This document shows positions 5,298 to 18,543 of a stretch of 18,658 bases of DNA, in pieces (positions within the stretch are counted from its first letter, which is position 1; the number at the start of each line of letters is the position of its first letter). Made by a program: the position numbers and the translations under genes. The stretch comes from a virus (Duplodnaviria > Heunggongvirae > Uroviricota > Caudoviricetes). The notes beneath the pieces are model-generated. The model searched no databases. It was not told the DNA's origin and was given only the letters and a program-made list of their open reading frames with translations. The stretch is from the IMG/VR virus record IMGVR_UViG_3300028453_000031. One strand, given 5' to 3'.

Positions 5298-5617
5298 GAA
5301 TCACCAGAAAAGTGATAACAGAGGTTGTTGTGGCTGGGGTGTCACTTAAGCGTATGGTCAACCTGACAACCCGGTGTCCTCAATGGGGGAAGGAATAACC
5401 CCGCCATACTTACCGCCGCGCCATTTCGCGGATTGCCACAACCGGAAGCGCACGGTCGAATTAAATTTAACGACAAAGTACAGAGAGACGAACTTCGCCG
5501 AGCGCTTTCGTGTTGTGTGCCTGCTTTTAACCACGTCAGGTGAGGTGGACCTGTTATTCCCCAACAACAAGGATCTTGTTAATCTGGATATCCACAACAA
5601 CAATAAGAGTATTGAAT

Positions 5618-5797
5618 GTGATCGCTGAATTAACGGCAGCAATGACGGCTATTCGTGAAACCGCTCAGATTGCAAAACTAATGAACGAGGCAAAAACTCA
5701 AGCTGAAGTAAATGCGGCTATTGGTGAACTGAACTCAAAGCTTGCATCTATTCAGCGCGAATGCGTGTCTCTCGTTGAGCTGGTGGGCACTTATTAA
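5618..5797 (+). CDS. Small coiled-coil-like ORF on the plus strand, ending at an in-frame TAA
   Basis: Frame encodes ...VIAELTAAMTAIRETAQIAKLMNEAKTQAEVNAAIGELNSKLASIQRECVSLVELVGTY*. Start is uncertain (GTG 5618 with weak AAGAG, or ATG 5645). The same frame stays open after the stop through 6133. Confidence 0.35.
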   Translation: MIAELTAAMTAIRETAQIAKLMNEAKTQAEVNAAIGELNSKLASIQRECVSLVELVGTY

Positions 5798-5917
5798 GAA
5801 ATAAATGCTTCTCTCAAAGCTAAAATTGCAGAATTTGAAAACTTTGAGGCTCAGACGGAAGGTTATATCCTTAACCAACTTGAGTCGGGAACTTTTGTGT
5901 ACTCGAAGGAGGTAACC

Positions 5918-8868: not shown

Positions 8869-9606
8869 ATGAAAAACATTGCGGCAGTTGGGGTTCTTGA
8901 ACGTATTCGCAGAATTGCACCACAGGGGGAGGTTCCACCGTACCGTACGGTGGAGGAGTGGCGGGAATGGCAGCTTGCTGAAGGGCGTAAGCGCAGCGAG
9001 GAGGTTAATCGCCTGAATCATCAGACGCGGGTTGAAAAAATCATTAACCGCTCCGGTATCCAGCCGCTTCACTGGAAGTGTACGTTCGGTAACTACCGGG
9101 TGCAGAACGATGGTCAGCGCCATGCCCTGAGTCAGGCGAAATCCATTGCGGCAGAGCTGGAAGGCGGCTGTACGAATTTTGTTTTCAGTGGCCGACCTGG
9201 CACAGGGAAAAACCACCCGGCGGCGATAGGCAATCGGCTGATGGAGAAGGGGCGCAGCGTAATTATCATCACTGTGTCTGATGTCATGAGTGTGTCGCAC
9301 GACAGTTACGACAACGGCAAATCAGGTGAAAAATTTTTACAGGAGCTTTGCGAGGTGGATTTGCTGGTCCTGGATGAAATTGGCATGCAGCGGGATACGC
9401 GCAATGAGCAAGTCACGCTTAATCAGATTGTTGACCGCAGAACGTCATCATTACGCAGTGTAGGGATGCTGACGAACCTGAATCATGTCGCAATGAATAC
9501 GCTTGTAGGCGAAAGGGCAATGGACCGCATGTCCATGAACGGTGGTCGCTGGGTGACTTTTGACTGGGAGAGCTGGCGTCCGAACGTCAGCCAGCACAGG
9601 AACTGA
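8869..9606 (+). CDS. DnaC-like helicase loader (AAA+ ATPase)
   Basis: SGRPGTGKNHPAAIGN (Walker A as in E. coli DnaC GKPGTGKNH), LLVLDEIGMQ (Walker B), and a C-terminal region resembling DnaC (NQIVDRR...GMLTNLN). Start is coupled to the initiator stop. Confidence 0.85.
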   Translation: MKNIAAVGVLERIRRIAPQGEVPPYRTVEEWREWQLAEGRKRSEEVNRLNHQTRVEKIINRSGIQPLHWKCTFGNYRVQNDGQRHALSQAKSIAAELEGGCTNFVFSGRPGTGKNHPAAIGNRLMEKGRSVIIITVSDVMSVSHDSYDNGKSGEKFLQELCEVDLLVLDEIGMQRDTRNEQVTLNQIVDRRTSSLRSVGMLTNLNHVAMNTLVGERAMDRMSMNGGRWVTFDWESWRPNVSQHRN

Positions 9607-9634
9607 GATGTAATTTTTGTCGGAGGAAATTTTA

Positions 9635-10405
9635 ATGGAAACCGTTTTTGACGCACTGAAAGCAATGGGAAAAGCCACATCGGTAGAACTGGCTGCGCGA
9701 CTTGATATCAGTCGTGAAGAGGTTCTCAACGAGCTGTGGGAACTCAAAAGAAATGGCGTCGTTGATAAAACTGGTCACACCTGGTTTCTGGCTGGCGAAG
9801 GTGAATCCCGGGTAACCGAAGAGCAGCCAGCAAAATCTGAAGCACCGGATGTGCTGACCGGGGAGGTCGAACAAAAAGTTACCGCAGACATGATGATTGA
9901 GTTTATCGGTCAGGAGGGGGCTAAAACGTGTGAGGAACTGGCGGGTAAGTTCGGTGTTAGCACTCGCAAGGTTGCTTCCACGCTGGCGGTAGTAACCGCA
10001 ACGGGGCGGTTGGCACGCGTTAATCAGAACGGTAAATTTCGTTACTGCATGCCGGGCGATAATTTACCAGTAGAGCCGAAAGCCGCGCCGGTAACGGAAA
10101 ATGATGGTAAGGCATTTCCTCAGTCAGCAGGTGTTGCGTTACCAGTCCGGGAAGCTGCAACACAGGAAGAAATTAAAACAGAAACTGTGGCGGACATTGT
10201 GCAGTCGTTGCCATCGTTCACCGAAACGCAAACGGATGACCTGGTTTTACCATCGCTGCATATGGCAAACCGCGAACTGCGTCGGGCGAAAAGTCATGTC
10301 CAGAAGTGGGAGCGTGTCTGCGCCGCGTTGCGGGAGCTGAACAAGCACCGGGATATTGTTCGACAGATTGTCGATTCCTCCAGTCGTATTGTGTCGGAAA
10401 AGTGA
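9635..10405 (+). CDS. Hypothetical protein with two winged-helix-like repeats
   Basis: GGAGG 8 nt before ATG 9635 (track start TTG 9617 less likely). Two similar HTH-like segments: [26 protein letters not shown] and [30 protein letters not shown]. Confidence 0.7.
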
Positions 10406-12422: not shown

Positions 12423-12656
12423 ATATGGGAATTCCCATATTGGGCAAAAACGGTTTGCTGTAAAGCGAGAGTTAAGTAGAATTGCTGCGGGTGCTTGAGG
12501 CTGTCTGCCTCGGGCATGCCGCCGTAAGGCAGACAGAGAAAAGCCCCAGTTAACATAACGCGTCCTGCAAGACGCTTAACATTAATCTGAGGCCCAATCT
12601 ATGTCTCACAAATGTAGGTTAGCCTCTTACGTGCCGAAGGCAAGGAGAAGCAGGCT
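12423..12656 (+). promoter_or_regulatory. hok mRNA leader region with strong secondary structure; expected location of the antisense (sok-like) RNA
   Basis: 18-bp perfect palindrome ATATGGGAATTCCCATAT (12423-12440); 10-bp perfect stem CTGTCTGCCT / AGGCAGACAG (12501-12510 and 12527-12536); short leader ORF 12601-12660 ending in ATGA at the hok start. Confidence 0.45.
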
Positions 12657-12812
12657 ATGAAGCAGCAAAAGGCGACGTTAATCGCCCTGATCGTCATCTG
12701 TTTAACCGTCATAGTGACGGCACTGGTAACGAGGAAAGACCTCTGCGAGGTACGAATCCGAACCGGCCAGACGGAGGTCGCTGTTTTCACAGTCTACGAA
12801 CCTGAGGAGTAA
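12657..12812 (+). CDS. hok: Hok/Gef family type I toxin
   Basis: 51-aa product MKQQKATLIALIVICLTVIVTALVTRKDLCEVRIRTGQTEVAVFTVYEPEE matches the Hok family pattern (TM helix then TRK.LCE.R.R.G..EVA....YE). AAGGAG 9 nt upstream. Confidence 0.85.
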   Translation: MKQQKATLIALIVICLTVIVTALVTRKDLCEVRIRTGQTEVAVFTVYEPEE

Positions 12813-14316: not shown

Positions 14317-14553
14317 ATGACCGAACGCATAGAATTTGTTTTGCCTTACCCGCCAACGGTGAACACTTACTGGCGACGTCGTGACCTGGACAACATTCTG
14401 AAAGCGCCACTGGATGCGCTGACGCATGCAGGACTACTTATCGACGACGAGCAGTTTGATGAAATTAATATTGTGCGCGGTCTGCCTGTTCCTGGCGGAC
14501 GGCTTGGTGTGAAAATTTACGAAATAACGCATGGCGGGCAGGCAAAAGAATGA
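14317..14553 (+). CDS. rusA: RusA-family Holliday junction resolvase with apparent internal in-frame deletion (78 aa versus ~120 aa)
   Basis: N-terminus LPYPPTVNTYW and C-terminal part RRRDLDNILKAPLDALTHAGLLIDDEQ...GGRLGVKIYEI align to RusA as I recall it; about 40 central residues are absent. ATGA coupling at both ends. Confidence 0.65.
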   Translation: MTERIEFVLPYPPTVNTYWRRRDLDNILKAPLDALTHAGLLIDDEQFDEINIVRGLPVPGGRLGVKIYEITHGGQAKE

Positions 14554-15371
14554 AACTGGAAGATTTACCAAAATACTATTCCCCAAAATCACCGGGTCTG
14601 ACGGATGCATCGGCCTCAACGTCAAAAGATGCGCTGAGTATCACTGATGTGATGGCAGCGCAGGGCATGACACAGAATCGGGCTGAGATGGGGTTTTCTG
14701 CGTTCCTTGGGAAAATGGGCATTAGTATGAATGACAGAGAGCGGGCAACAGAATTGCTGACAGAATATGCACTCAGTCGGTGTGATCGCGTGGCGGCGTT
14801 AAGAAAACTCCCGGCAGAAATAAAACCGGCAGTGATGCGTATTATGGCTTCGTATGCGTTTGAAGATTATGCCCGTAGCGCGGCGAGCAAAAAACAGTGC
14901 CCCTGCTGTCACGGAAAAAAATTTATTGAAAGCGAGGTTTTTACAAACAAGATCCAGTATCCGGATGGTAAGCCGCCAGTGTGGGCAAAGTGCACAAAAG
15001 GCGTGTATCCGTCTTACTGGGAGGAATGGAAAAAAGTCAGGGAGGTGGTAAAAGTTGCCTGTCCGGAGTGTGGAGGGAAGGGAGAGGTATCCACTGCCTG
15101 TAAAGATTGTCGTGGGCGCGGTGTTGCCATTCATCGTGAAGAGTCGGAAAAACAGGGTGTGCCGGTTTTCAGAAACTGTCAGCGTTGTGGTGGGCGTGGC
15201 TATGAAAGATTACCTTCAACGGAGGCATTTAATGCCATATGTAATGTAACCGATGCCATATCTCTTGATACATGGAAAAAAACAGTTAAACGTTTTTACG
15301 ATACGCTGGTGGTGCAGTTTGATATTGAAGAAGCATGGGCAGAACAACAACTGAAAAAGGTGACCAGATAG
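14550..15371 (+). CDS. Late-gene antiterminator Q-like protein (multi-CxxC zinc binding)
   Basis: Position after rusA and before the late promoter and tRNAs. SPKSP...TDVMAAQGM N-terminal pattern and several CxxC pairs. Family assignment is from memory of Q-type proteins. Confidence 0.65.
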   Translation: MKLEDLPKYYSPKSPGLTDASASTSKDALSITDVMAAQGMTQNRAEMGFSAFLGKMGISMNDRERATELLTEYALSRCDRVAALRKLPAEIKPAVMRIMASYAFEDYARSAASKKQCPCCHGKKFIESEVFTNKIQYPDGKPPVWAKCTKGVYPSYWEEWKKVREVVKVACPECGGKGEVSTACKDCRGRGVAIHREESEKQGVPVFRNCQRCGGRGYERLPSTEAFNAICNVTDAISLDTWKKTVKRFYDTLVVQFDIEEAWAEQQLKKVTR

Positions 15372-15450: not shown

Positions 15451-15476
15451 ACCCGTCGCCAGGCGGGTTTTTTTAT
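15451..15476 (+). terminator. Candidate tR'-like terminator in the late leader
   Basis: ACCCG...CGGGT stem (5 bp, 8-nt loop) followed by TTTTTTTA. Confidence 0.45.
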
Positions 15477-15596
15477 GACTGAAATCACGCCAGTACATAA
15501 AATGTGCAGGTGGTTATTAATACCGGTCTTTCAGCTTGCTGGCTTTTTTGACAAGAGTTATTGGTGTGTCACGTTAACCGGAAAAGGGAAAAAGAC

Positions 15597-15794
15597 ATGC
15601 TGAAACAGCAGGATATGACCGAAACCGCCAGAGTGGTGTTTAATGAATTAAGCGTCACCGAACCGGCGACAGTCGGGGAGATTGCGCAGAATACTTACCT
15701 TTCACGCGAACGCTGCCAGTTAATACTGACCCAGCTTGTTATGGCGGGTCTGGCAGACTATCAGTTCGGTTGTTACAGACGCCTTCAGTCATGA
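15597..15794 (+). CDS. Small hypothetical protein (65 aa), possible winged helix
   Basis: MLKQQDMTETARVVFNELSVTEPATVGEIAQNTYLSRERCQLILTQLVMAGLADYQF...; first ORF after the late leader. Confidence 0.5.
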   Translation: MLKQQDMTETARVVFNELSVTEPATVGEIAQNTYLSRERCQLILTQLVMAGLADYQFGCYRRLQS

Positions 15795-15944
15795 AGGCTT
15801 TTTTATTTGTGGTAAATGGGCGGCTGGTGGGTGTTAGGGGCACTCACCAGCCATCTGCTCATGCGTCTGGATCACAAGCAAACCTCAGGCCCACTGCTTT
15901 GCGCAAAAGCAGAATGAGCCTATCAGAGACAGGCTTAATGATCC

Positions 15945-17003
15945 ATGTTTAATACTGTAAAAATATCCAGTTGTGAGTTGATCAACGCTGACTGCCTGGA
16001 ATTTATCCGGTCGTTACCCGAAAATTCTGTTGACCTGATAGTCACGGACCCGCCGTCCTTTAAAGTGAAGCCTGAGGGCTGGGATAACCAGTGGAAGGGC
16101 GACGATGATTACCTGAAATGGCTGGACCAGTGTCTGGCGCAGTTCTGGCGGGTGCTGAAACCTGCCGGAAGTCTTTACCTGTTCTGTGGCCATCGCCTGG
16201 CATCTGACATTGAAATCATGATGCGAGAACGCTTCAGTGTGCTGAACCATATTATCTGGGCGAAGCCGTCCGGACGCTGGAACGGGTGCAACAAGGAAAG
16301 CCTGAGGGCGTATTTCCCCGCCACAGAGCGCATTCTGTTCGCGGAACATTATCAGGGGCCGTATCGTCCGAAAGATGCCGGGTATGAGGCGAAGGGCAGG
16401 GCACTGAAACAGCATGTGATGACACCGCTGATTGCTTACTTTCGTGATGCGCGTGCTGCCCTGGGGATAACGGCAAAACAGATTGCTGATGCCACAGGAA
16501 AGAAAAACATGGTGTCGCACTGGTTCAGTGCCAGTCAGTGGCAGTTACCGAACGAAAGCGATTATCTGAAATTACAGGTGCTGTTTGCCCGGGTGGCAGA
16601 AGAGAAGCATCAGCGGGGTGAACTGGAAAAGCCCCACCACCAGCTGCTGGAGACGTATACTTCACTGAACCGGCAGTATGCGGAACTGCAGAGTGAATAT
16701 AAGCATCTGCGGCGGTATTTTGGCGTGACGGCGCAGATGCCGTACACGGATGTGTGGACGCATAAACCGGTGCAGTACTATCCCGGGAAACATCCGTGCG
16801 AAAAACCGGCAGAAATGCTGCAGCAGATAATCAGCGCGAGCAGTCGTCCGGGTGACCTGGTTGCAGATTTTTTCATGGGGTCGGGTTCGACAGTCAAAGC
16901 CGCGATGGCGCTGGGGCGGCGTGCAACTGGCGTTGAGCTGGAGACTGAACGTTTTGAGCAGACGGTCAGAGAAGTTCAGGATTTAGTCAGTCAGAACGGA
17001 TGA
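15945..17003 (+). CDS. Orphan DNA methyltransferase, beta-class amino-MTase (N6-adenine or N4-cytosine)
   Basis: Motif IV-like LIVTDPPSF near the N-terminus and motif I FFMGSGST near the C-terminus (beta-class order). No adjacent restriction endonuclease gene. Confidence 0.85.
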   Translation: MFNTVKISSCELINADCLEFIRSLPENSVDLIVTDPPSFKVKPEGWDNQWKGDDDYLKWLDQCLAQFWRVLKPAGSLYLFCGHRLASDIEIMMRERFSVLNHIIWAKPSGRWNGCNKESLRAYFPATERILFAEHYQGPYRPKDAGYEAKGRALKQHVMTPLIAYFRDARAALGITAKQIADATGKKNMVSHWFSASQWQLPNESDYLKLQVLFARVAEEKHQRGELEKPHHQLLETYTSLNRQYAELQSEYKHLRRYFGVTAQMPYTDVWTHKPVQYYPGKHPCEKPAEMLQQIISASSRPGDLVADFFMGSGSTVKAAMALGRRATGVELETERFEQTVREVQDLVSQNG

Positions 17004-17043: not shown

Positions 17044-17119
17044 GGCCCTTTAGCTCAGTGGTGAGAGCGAGCGACTCATAATCGCCAGGTCGCTGGTTCA
17101 AATCCAGCAAGGGCCACCA
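17044..17119 (+). tRNA. ileZ: tRNA-Ile (anticodon CAU, lysidine type), ileX/ileZ-like
   Basis: 76 nt, 7-bp acceptor stem GGCCCTT/AAGGGCC, anticodon loop CTCATAA, T-loop TTCAAAT, 3' CCA. Near-identical to E. coli tRNA-Ile2 as I recall it. Confidence 0.85.
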
Positions 17120-17128
17120 TATCACATA

Positions 17129-17205
17129 CCGCCATTAGCTCATCGGGATAGAGCGCCAGCCTTCGAAGCTGGCTGCGCGGGGTTCGAGTCCTCGATGGCG
17201 GTCCA
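17129..17205 (+). tRNA. tRNA-Arg (anticodon UCG)
   Basis: 77 nt, acceptor CCGCCAT/ATGGCGG, D-arm GCTC/GAGC, anticodon stem CCAGC/GCTGG with loop CTTCGAA, T-arm CGGGG-TTCGAGT-CCTCG, 3' CCA. Resembles the rare-codon Arg tRNA (argO-like) of Stx phages. Confidence 0.8.
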
Positions 17206-17483
17206 TTATCTGCATTATGCGTTGTTGGTTCTGATGAGTGAATCATTGTCTTTTGAGCAACAGGCTATCATATAAGATAGCCTCAGACTTCCTTGTTTAT
17301 TCTCGCCGGATGCTTCGTAGATATTTGCAGGCATCTGTATGCAGGGGTATTATTGCGGCATATATCATCCGGAAAAATAAAAACTACATGCTGATCCGGA
17401 GATGATAGTTACAAGTCCTCCCGGATCCCGCATATTTACTATATTTTATAGATAATTGTTCTTGTTAATATGGAGATGGATAA

Positions 17484-17912
17484 ATGTATTGCCGTGCTGT
17501 ACCGGTTCTTGTTTTGATATTAGCCAGTCTGACAACTGGCTGCACAAAAGATGTATCGACAAATAATCATGATGCTTCTCTGTATCACTCAGATAAATTA
17601 ATAAAGTCGCAAAATTTGAGCTCATCGGAACGTACCCCTGATGCCAGTGAAGAAATCCGGCAGTATGCCATTCAGGTCAGGAAAGCCATAGAAGAACAGT
17701 TAAAGGATGCGAGTAAGTATTCAGGAAAAGAGTGTTCACTGAGAATGTATATGGCCCCGAATGGTCTTCTGCTACAGGTTAAAAGAGAAAGCGGTGATCC
17801 CGATTTATGTCGTGAAGCGATGAATGCAGTAAAGAATGCTGATATACCATCACCACCGTCTTCAGGAGTATATAAAGCATTTAGAAATGGCGTGCTGGAT
17901 TTTAAACTCTGA
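17484..17912 (+). CDS. Lipoprotein with TolA C-terminal domain (domain III)-like mature region; moron candidate
   Basis: Signal peptide with lipobox LTTGC. Residues ~57-142 (YAIQVRKAIEEQLKDASKYSGKECSLRMYMAPNGLLLQVKRESGDPDLCREAMNAVKNADIPSPPSSGVYKAFRNGVLDFKL) align with the TolA C-terminal domain, including both cysteines. GGAG 8 nt upstream; markedly AT-rich gene and flanks. Confidence 0.8.
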   Translation: MYCRAVPVLVLILASLTTGCTKDVSTNNHDASLYHSDKLIKSQNLSSSERTPDASEEIRQYAIQVRKAIEEQLKDASKYSGKECSLRMYMAPNGLLLQVKRESGDPDLCREAMNAVKNADIPSPPSSGVYKAFRNGVLDFKL

Positions 17913-17942
17913 CAGGGGGAGAAGATTTTCTCCTGTCCTGAT
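17913..17942 (+). terminator. Hairpin after the lipoprotein gene (weak terminator candidate)
   Basis: GACAGGGGGAGAA...TTCTCCTGTC imperfect inverted repeat directly after the stop. Confidence 0.35.
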
Positions 17943-18202
17943 GATTTTGGGGCGCTGGAAAGATATTGTGCTGTGAAGTGTTAAATCCCTCACAATTCAG
18001 TAAGTTGACAGTTGCCTGTCAGACTGAGCATTTGTTAAAAAAATTTCGCATGGTGAATCCCCCTGTGCGGAGGGGCGACTGGTGAACGGTATGATCTCTT
18101 TGATGATCGTAAGCGAGAATACGCGGGTTTGGTGTCACCGGGCTGAACTCACCGGGAGGCACCCGGCACCATGCTCATGGTGATACAGAAATGCGGCTTC
18201 AG

Positions 18203-18228
18203 CCCCTCTCCGGAGGGGCTTTCTTATG
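18203..18228 (+). terminator. Rho-independent terminator (plus strand)
   Basis: GCCCCTC-TCCG-GAGGGGC perfect 7-bp stem followed by TTTCTTAT. Confidence 0.5.
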
Positions 18229-18232
18229 GACA

Positions 18233-18261: not shown

Positions 18262-18382
18262 GCAAGGAATAAACAATAAAACGTGAAGTAATACTTCAAC
18301 TGGCGAATAATACCCGACAGTAATCACTCTGCGCAATAGCGTGGCCTTTTTCGAATTGCGGGCTGTAGTCTCCCTTCTGCCG

Positions 18383-18543
18383 GGTGTCCTGGTTGCAGAT
18401 TTCTTCATGGGGTAGGGTTCGGCAGTTAAAGCAGCGATGGCGCTGGGGCGTCGTGCAACTGGCGTTGAGCTGGATACCGGGCGTTTTGAACAGACTGCGC
18501 AGGAAATCAGGGATGTATTTAGCGGGAGCGCTTTGCAGAAGTA
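18383..18543 (+). pseudogene. Degenerate duplicate of the methyltransferase 3' end (motif I region) with an in-frame stop
   Basis: Aligns to 16851-17003: CTGGTTGCAGATTTCTTCATGGGGTAGGGTTCGGCAGTTAAAGC versus CTGGTTGCAGATTTTTTCATGGGGTCGGGTTCGACAGTCAAAGC. Encodes LVADFFMG*GSAVKAAMALGRRATGVELDTGRFEQT... with TAG replacing TCG. Confidence 0.7.

Follow-up and report, generated by a model that had tools for sequence, protein, structure and literature searches.

What takes the place of the Shiga toxin (Stx) genes when a lambdoid prophage carries other cargo at the stx locus, and what might that cargo do for the bacterium that harbours it? These questions are raised by an 18,658-nucleotide stretch of a caudoviral record, IMGVR_UViG_3300028453_000031 (the window, meaning the whole stretch analysed), in which a gene for a 142-amino-acid (aa) protein lies downstream of the antiterminator gene Q, a methyltransferase gene and two tRNA genes. 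An initial annotation made from the sequence alone had described the product as a lipoprotein copying TolA's C-terminal domain (domain III, TolAIII) and had placed its gene at the position of stx. We find that the protein belongs to the TolA C-terminal domain family but is not TolA proper, and that the gene is not singular but one member of a large family, whose scale the initial annotation had underestimated. In our judgement there is about an even chance that the protein acts as an outer-membrane-tethered decoy of the Tol import hub, giving tolerance to Tol-dependent colicins and filamentous phages.

The relationship to TolA was established by profile, alignment and structure. The Pfam profile of the TolA C-terminal domain (PF06519) matched residues 52-140 with E=5.7e-23 and 81.4 bits (cut-off 25), spanning profile positions 7-96 of 96, and phmmer against the PDB returned the E. 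coli TolAIII chains 1s62, 3qdp, 2x9a, 1tol and 9k49 with E values from 1.6e-25 to 4.5e-24. In a gap-free alignment, residues 54-141 correspond to E. coli TolA 333-420 (residue i aligning with TolA i+279), with an identity to the E. coli domain of ~51% over 89 columns. Cys84 and Cys109, both invariant in the family, align to TolA Cys363 and Cys388 within the motifs GKECSLR and DPDLCREA (GKTCTLR and DPALCQAA in TolA), exactly as the initial annotation had quoted them. The AlphaFold2 model shows the domain as helix, strand, strand, helix, helix, strand, with a predicted local distance difference test score (pLDDT) of 67-83, while residues 1-53 stay below 50. Its best PDB matches in Foldseek were the TolAIII structures 3qdp, 2x9a_B and 1tol, and superposition on 3qdp and 2x9a_B gave template-modelling scores of 0.74-0.80 (target-normalised) and a root-mean-square deviation of 2.0-2.7 Å. 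Both the profile search and the structure prediction suggested with the initial annotation thus uphold a copy of the TolA domain that includes both cysteines.

Fold, sequence identity, cysteines and the LDFK motif of strand beta3 are shared with E. coli TolA domain III (residues ~333-421; 1S62, 3QDP, 1TOL), but the remainder of TolA is missing. A cleavable lipoprotein signal is predicted in place of the N-terminal transmembrane helix (domain I), with a predicted lipid anchor at the other membrane; the long helical domain II is absent from a protein of 142 aa in total, whose linker is a disordered stretch of 33 residues; and the residues equivalent to K368, D377 and P380 are changed. The gene also lies outside the tolQRA-tolB-pal operon, in a lambdoid prophage, between the tRNA genes and the nanS-p/lysis module. 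The NCBIfam model PRK09510 scored 103.1 bits, below its cut-off of 213, and covered only profile positions 297-386 of 387; the equivalog TIGR02794 scored 75.9 bits, above its cut-off of 59.45, through the C-terminal domain alone. Because that domain suffices to pass TIGR02794, PGAP assigns the symbol tolA to proteins of 120-145 aa. The names found in databases were all assigned by pipelines and read either 'cell envelope integrity protein TolA' or 'colicin import membrane protein', and PHROG 5772, the family of the 142-aa protein, is labelled 'unknown function'. The automatic name 'tolA' is thereby given, in some 900 complete E. coli genomes and on over 1300 plasmids, to a gene whose product cannot be TolA.

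The N-terminus, MYCRAVPVLVLILASLTTGC, satisfies a lipobox rule that we coded as a regular-expression version of PROSITE PS51257. The segment MYCRAVPVLVLILASLTTG before the cysteine contains one basic residue and a 12-residue hydrophobic core, the Cys falls at position 20 (required range 15-35), and the rule still holds with Thr, not the commonest Leu, at lipobox position -3. Cys20 is invariant in three subfamilies whose signal peptides otherwise diverge (LTTGC, LTAGC and IIIGC), in keeping with the LTTGC lipoprotein signal proposed initially. As the +2 residue is Thr and not Asp (Asp occurs there in 0 of 40 family members), sorting of the lipoprotein to the outer membrane is predicted. The tether between anchor and domain is the most variable part of the protein between subfamilies. 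Read from its sequence, the product is a predicted lipoprotein carrying a genuine TolA domain III.

Is the ligand site of the domain preserved? In TolA, the N-terminal transmembrane helix couples to the TolQR motor, the long helix reaches the outer membrane, and domain III takes hold of the N-terminus of TolB by strand addition and detaches TolB from Pal (PMC7066135). The beta3 strand of TolAIII is also used by the N1 domain of g3p from filamentous phages and by colicin N, and the substitutions D418P or K420P in TolA abolish the interactions with TolB, g3p-N1 and colicin N; colicin A contacts the opposite face, at 375-LLDIKP-380 together with K368, K379 and K396 (PMC4339652, PMC3365938). TolA mutations affecting colicin sensitivity have been compiled for Y340, I344, I348, F412, D418, F419 and K420 (Table 1 of PMC4339652). 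Six of these seven residues are identical in the 142-aa protein (Y61, I69, F133, D139, F140 and K141) and the remaining one is conservatively replaced (V65 for Ile). TolA L417, D418, F419 and K420 are all identical, and the L-D-F-K of beta3 is invariant across the E. coli family. When 52 short lipoproteins were compared with 43 full-length TolAs, LDFK and the structural core were at least as conserved in the former, D418 being kept in 74% of the short proteins versus 30% of the full-length ones. Comparison of subfamilies A and C gave a ratio of non-synonymous to synonymous substitution rates (dN/dS) of 0.33 over the whole length and of 0.28 for the domain, which indicates that the gene is maintained by selection and is not a relic. 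The protein would offer a competent-looking ligand site devoid of energy transduction, at the place where incoming translocation domains emerge.

Comparison with the Stx2a phage AP012536 located the gene to the base. The window is 95.6% identical to this phage over 15447-17226 and 89.6% identical over 17990-18227; homology stops at 17226 and restarts at 17990, which corresponds to a point 46 bp past stx2B in AP012536. The intervening segment therefore stands in for argO, stx2A and stx2B, with 763 bp here versus the 1446 bp that hold these three genes in AP012536; the layout of Stx2 phages is methyltransferase-ileZ-argN-argO-stx2A-stx2B. The segment shows two features of a phage moron: a composition unlike its neighbours (41% GC versus 53.5% in the 1.3 kb upstream) and a clean swap with argO and stx2AB between homologous phages. 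The stx position and the AT-rich character given in the initial annotation are both confirmed in this way. Its statement that the gene lies just downstream of Q, the late promoter and the tRNA genes is right as to order, but Q is 2.1 kb upstream with the methyltransferase gene between, an arrangement shared by Stx2 phages. The tRNA gene argO has gone together with the toxin genes, homology stopping 7-8 nt into it (17044-17205 compared with 5600-5851 of stretch L008). Within the gene, ATA is used for four of six Ile codons and AGA or AGG for four of eight Arg codons; the ATA codons are served by ileZ, whereas the AGA-reading tRNA is the missing one.

The gene lies within the Q-dependent late transcript. 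Alignment of the upstream regions of four subfamilies did not reveal a shared -35/-10 element. At the stop codon, a hairpin that was not flagged by a consensus terminator scan (17911-17937), the U-rich tract behind it and the AT-rich composition fit, but do not prove, an autonomous moron.

Relatives of the gene are common in E. coli. With the gene as blastn query, 897 of 5426 complete E. coli genomes (~16%) were positive, a count that excludes chromosomal tolA, which is too diverged for blastn pickup; 894 of the 897 matches cover at least 80% of the gene. The window variant (>=95% identity) is present in ~107 of these genomes and a variant at ~81% in ~774. Protein searches resolved three E. 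coli/Shigella subfamilies at 65-74% identity, and identity between lineages of the family is 28-50%. Relatives are encoded by 125 IMG/VR contigs, a count from a scan with a close-family alignment and so confined to close phage-borne members. In all 80 contigs examined, the gene comes after Q and before the lysis genes, its median distance to the holin gene being 801 bp, and the order is invariably (RusA)-Q-[methyltransferase]-gene-[...]-holin-endolysin; stx2A was not found near the gene in any of them (up to 6 kb on either side). The phage GenBank collection holds one record with the protein, mEp460_ev081 (67% identity), and a 40%-identical copy in a Salmonella prophage likewise sits between Q and holin.

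The same architecture extends well beyond prophages. When 1.8 billion cluster representatives were searched exhaustively with HMMER, 305 matched, and 47 of the 148 best representatives are proteins of 110-165 residues with a lipobox and a TolAIII domain only. Short homologues were found by tblastn on at least 1329 plasmid records (Klebsiella 672, Escherichia 550 and Shigella 38), among them pO157 as well as IncF and bacteriocin plasmids of Klebsiella, and the carriers are conjugative, mobilizable and non-mobilizable in roughly equal parts. The copies on F-type plasmids either adjoin psiB/psiA in the leading region or follow a thioredoxin-fold gene. Over the 90-residue domain, the nearest neighbour of a short protein is another short one in 35 of 52 cases, and the window protein is equally close to E. 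coli TolA and to a Salmonella prophage copy, a pattern that would fit one capture of the domain as well as several.

A second, more diverged TolA-domain lipoprotein, here called TolA2, has a Cys-rich N-terminal part and ends in FDMRG, not LDFKP. In 55 of 58 viral loci it follows the common prophage variant at a distance of 154 bp, and it accompanies the window's variant in 0 of 22; examples are L002 6580-6975 (mEp460_ev081), L009 7547-7921 and L005 5947-6378 (pO157). The TolA2 type occurs alone on pO157-type plasmids, on pO157 itself 2.2 kb beyond psiB-psiA-hok.

Several relatives are associated with bacteriocin genes or with TonB_C domains, TonB being the second energy-transducing hub exploited by bacteriocins and phages. 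TonB_C is fused to TolA_C in single lipoproteins belonging to three separate 50%-identity clusters, and a 323-aa protein has two TolA_C domains (P0052, P0148, P0110 and P0043 make up the fusion/duplication set). On the 10-kb Klebsiella ColRNAI plasmid NZ_CP044260 (L006 6174-9939), which has colicin-like tRNase, immunity and lysis genes, the gene for a TolA-C lipoprotein (9206-9577) is followed, with a 4-nt coding overlap, by that for a Sec-signal TonB_C protein (9574-9939). In Salmonella enterica contigs of 15-18 kb (L091-L093), a 128-aa TolA-C lipoprotein adjoins a resolvase and a microcin V-type cluster containing MccV, a CvaA/CvaB-like exporter and an Rce1-like immunity protein. IncF plasmids of Klebsiella and E. 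coli always have the gene for the TolA-C lipoprotein 46 bp behind one for a thioredoxin-fold (DsbA/TraF-like) protein (L003 6406-7435, L007 8406-9435 and L095 6406-7435), which may be a dedicated oxidoreductase for the disulfide of the TolA-C domain.

How could such a protein protect its carrier? In the mechanism we propose, a copy of TolA domain III would hang in the outer periplasm from a flexible tether ~33 residues long; it would keep the beta3 strand-addition site for the TolB N-terminus, g3p N1 and colicin N and, because domains I and II are absent, could not be energised by TolQR. The translocation domains of group A bacteriocins and of g3p would meet this decoy first and end in dead-end complexes, and the carrier cell would be tolerant. 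Levengood-Freyermuth et al. (1993, J Bacteriol) reportedly obtained colicin tolerance by overproducing TolAIII in the periplasm. The affinity of TolAIII is ~1 uM for colicin N and g3p versus ~40 uM for TolB (PMC4339652), so that a modest amount of decoy could capture invaders without crippling Tol-Pal. In the reciprocal case, periplasmic g3p-N1 sequesters TolA, which makes the cells resistant to colicin A and lowers phage uptake by 4 logs (PMC10424213). The homologues on plasmids, which are non-lytic elements, favour a role in living carrier cells; plasmid occurrence, TonB_C linkage and the microcin V neighbour together favour a decoy or tolerance function over a role in lysis. The mechanism is coherent and is backed by anatomy and genomic association, and we would put its chances of being correct at around one in two. 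More tentatively, and somewhat short of even odds, mobile elements of Enterobacterales may carry a whole class of unrecognised 'import-hub decoys', that is, anchorless copies of TolA or TonB C-terminal domains, alone, in tandem or fused and usually lipid-tethered beneath the outer membrane, which would make their carriers broadly tolerant of bacteriocins and phages that depend on Tol or Ton and which in Stx-type prophages would be an alternative occupant of the stx slot.

A number of observations weigh against the decoy. The face bound by colicin A is altered (K368->Y, D377->Q and P380->R), and it is variable in the family, residue 89 (the K368 equivalent) being Y, H or N according to subfamily. 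The decoy presumes expression in the lysogen, yet the lone promoter-like match is weak and is not conserved; because the gene sits in the Q-dependent late transcript, the protein may be produced mainly after induction, when protection of the cell matters less. TolB, too, should be drawn to any copy of TolAIII, and interference with Tol-Pal renders cells sensitive to detergents, a costly trait in the gut. The plasmid homologues are just 28-34% identical and could have another role. The common prophage variant has decayed alleles (proteins P0020, P0022-P0029 and P0036) in which a frameshift swaps the last ~17 residues and beta3 is lost, and one copy (L009 7115-7375) is IS1-truncated in a cryptic prophage at the Rac site. 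Lastly, a 142-aa relative stands among metabolic genes in the Klebsiella quasipneumoniae chromosome CP068237 (L090 7001-7429), bare of any sign of a mobile element, which shows that the family also exists outside mobile DNA.

Could the protein serve the phage by disabling Tol-Pal instead of shielding the cell? A tethered TolAIII might capture the TolB N-terminus (or Pal) so that TolA could no longer pull TolB off Pal; made late, shortly ahead of holin and endolysin, it would loosen the outer membrane and cause vesiculation or leakage, which would aid lysis or help phage and cargo to escape. Henry et al. (2004, Res Microbiol) are said to have used periplasmic TolAIII to induce vesicles. The location ahead of the lysis genes in all 80 viral contigs agrees with such a role, as do the co-transcription from pR' expected here as for stx2 and the intact TolB-binding strand; a block between TolA and TolB causes a full tol phenotype with periplasmic leakage (PMC4339652), and the TolB N-terminus is the handle of TolA (PMC7066135). 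Yet this architecture is also frequent on plasmids, elements that do not lyse the host cell, and is present in a Klebsiella chromosome, lambdoid phages already have spanins, and position is weak evidence because the Q-to-S gap is a general moron hotspot. The affinity of TolB for TolAIII is low, and the pairing and fusion with TonB_C are hard to square with a lysis role. On balance we regard sabotage of Tol-Pal as unlikely.

Less probable again is that the TolA/TonB-like fold is a generic strand-addition module for some other periplasmic or outer-membrane protein, such as a tailed-phage receptor, a conjugation component or a host factor in colonisation, its likeness to the TolA ligand site being ancestral baggage. 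This would suit the diversity between lineages, the tandem paralogue TolA2 (pO157 type) without LDFK, the F-type plasmid copies beside psiB/psiA or behind a thioredoxin-fold gene and the variable colicin A face; against it, the residues that bind TolB, g3p and colicin N are the best conserved in the window protein, and no data suggest an alternative partner. That the gene is a functionless, decaying fragment of a captured host tolA, as its PGAP name and the truncated and frameshifted copies in cryptic prophages might suggest, is very improbable. The lipoprotein signal with its invariant Cys is new and foreign to tolA, dN/dS is ~0.3, the open reading frame is intact in ~900 genomes, the DNA is too far from chromosomal tolA for a blastn match, and the family has been kept independently on many element types. 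Intact reading frames, purifying selection and the new signal largely refute this last explanation.

Small phage lipoproteins that stop competing phages and colicins are known: Llp of T5 and Cor of phi80, N15 and the mEp phages sit at the inner leaflet of the outer membrane and plug the outer-membrane receptor FhuA. An import-hub decoy would have a like outcome, but instead of plugging a receptor it would copy a periplasmic hub and titrate the invader; a Pfam scan found no sequence relation between the 142-aa protein and Llp or Cor. Anchorless TolAIII produced experimentally in the periplasm reportedly behaves as a dominant competitor that brings colicin tolerance, leakiness and vesicles. That construct is artificial and soluble, whereas the prophage protein is natural, predicted to be lipid-tethered, ~50% diverged and under selection on mobile elements. 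With exclusion mediated by g3p, the decoy would share the TolAIII-ligand interface and the combined tolerance to colicins and phage (PMC10424213), but as a mirror image: there an overproduced ligand blocks the hub and a tol phenotype is the price, and here a duplicated hub would soak up the ligand. With stx2AB and other morons of the Q-to-S region (bor and lom of lambda too), the gene has in common the slot, AT-rich composition, rare codons with adjacent phage tRNA genes and a presence/absence pattern among phages that are otherwise nearly identical; unlike stx2AB, its cargo would by inference be an envelope protein for competition between bacteria, not a toxin against an animal host. A search of PADLOC-DB 2.0, a catalogue of anti-phage defence systems, gave 0 families at E<=0.1. 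The initial annotation knew of no described exclusion system based on TolA mimicry, and our full-text search of 8 million papers and preprints, which include only a minority of those in subscription journals, likewise found no description of a natural TolA-domain lipoprotein. The tolA discussed in a paper on O157 in soil and water was set aside, as it is the chromosomal tolA and not the prophage gene; three further hits matched just the name 'Tolar' or, again, chromosomal tolA.

The possible consequences reach beyond one prophage. In the competition between enteric bacteria, the Tol-dependent colicins (E1, E2-E9, K, N and A) and the filamentous phages play a major part, and colicins have been proposed as agents against Shiga toxin-producing E. 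coli. If the decoy function is real, a widespread, mobile tolerance factor would have to be reckoned with wherever colicin sensitivity, the host range of phages or the replacement of strains is interpreted; roughly every sixth sequenced E. coli, as well as plasmids such as pO157 and the IncF and bacteriocin plasmids of Klebsiella, would harbour a factor for competition or defence that is mislabelled 'TolA'; and the copying of a periplasmic hub would join the masking of surface receptors as a principle of exclusion. The stx locus is shown to be a general cargo slot, one alternative occupant of which would act on bacterial and not animal targets. A natural, tuned TolAIII competitor could also help to dissect the mechanics of TolA, TolB and Pal.

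Table. Coordinates of the TolA-domain lipoprotein gene and of neighbouring features in the window
Feature	Position	Strand	Basis or remark
Gene for the 142-aa TolA-domain-III lipoprotein	17484..17912	+	ATG start, stop codon included
GGAG ribosome-binding site	17472..17475	+	8 nt 5' of ATG, read from sequence
Signal peptide, lipobox LTTG/C, predicted lipidated Cys20	17484..17543	+	PS51257-like rule satisfied
Disordered tether, residues 21-53 (~33 residues)	17544..17642	+	pLDDT <50, without secondary structure
TolAIII-like domain, residues 54-142 (beta3 LDFK, 138-141)	17643..17909	+	Profile, alignment, AlphaFold2, Foldseek
AT-rich cassette (763 bp, 41% GC) replacing argO, stx2A and stx2B of Stx2a phages	17227..17989	+	Homology breakpoints versus AP012536
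Sigma-70-like match TTTGCA-18-TATTAT	17324..17353	+	Weak; only such match 5' of the gene
Terminator-like 12-bp hairpin at the stop codon, then CUGAUGAUUUUGG (U-rich)	17911..17937	+	RNA fold -26.1 kcal/mol, z=-2.0
Antiterminator Q	14550..15371	+	Pfam Antiterm
Terminator-like hairpins	15451-15468, 15781-15798	+	Sequence scan; 3' of Q
Late promoter-like site	15475-15503	+	Sequence scan; 3' of Q
DNA methyltransferase	15945..17003	+	97-98% identical in Stx2 phages
ileZ-type tRNA, anticodon CAU	17044..17119	+	ARAGORN: Met; PGAP: Ile
argN-type tRNA-Arg (UCG)	17129..17205	+	tRNA scan, Stx2 phage comparison
Remnant of a second methyltransferase 3' end	18380..18522	+	83% direct repeat of 16848-16990; PGAP pseudogene

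The window comprises the left and central parts of the lambdoid prophage, with genes for an integrase, an ExoVIII-type exonuclease, replication proteins, a DUF968 protein, Q and the methyltransferase, and the two tRNA genes. A 99.8%-identical chromosomal copy (NZ_CP027312) continues with genes for an AraC-type regulator, the nanS-p esterase, holin, lysozyme, Rz, and head and tail proteins. The 143-nt direct repeat formed by the end of the methyltransferase gene and its remnant brackets the tRNA genes, the cassette and an STnc100 element; its second copy is degenerate, with an internal stop, and the repeat is the scar of an earlier module exchange. The STnc100 element, a full-length match to this small RNA family (RF02076, 172 bits) at 18019-18231 (+), lies just 3' of the cassette, in a location that corresponds to the region past stx2B in Stx2 phages, and about four more copies precede nanS-p in the complete prophage (stretch L001 22948-24086). 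In the early-right region, a hok/sok-type toxin-antitoxin RNA (Rfam sok, 109 bits) was detected at 12489-12662 (+), and PGAP places a Hok/Gef gene at the matching spot of the complete prophage (stretch L001).

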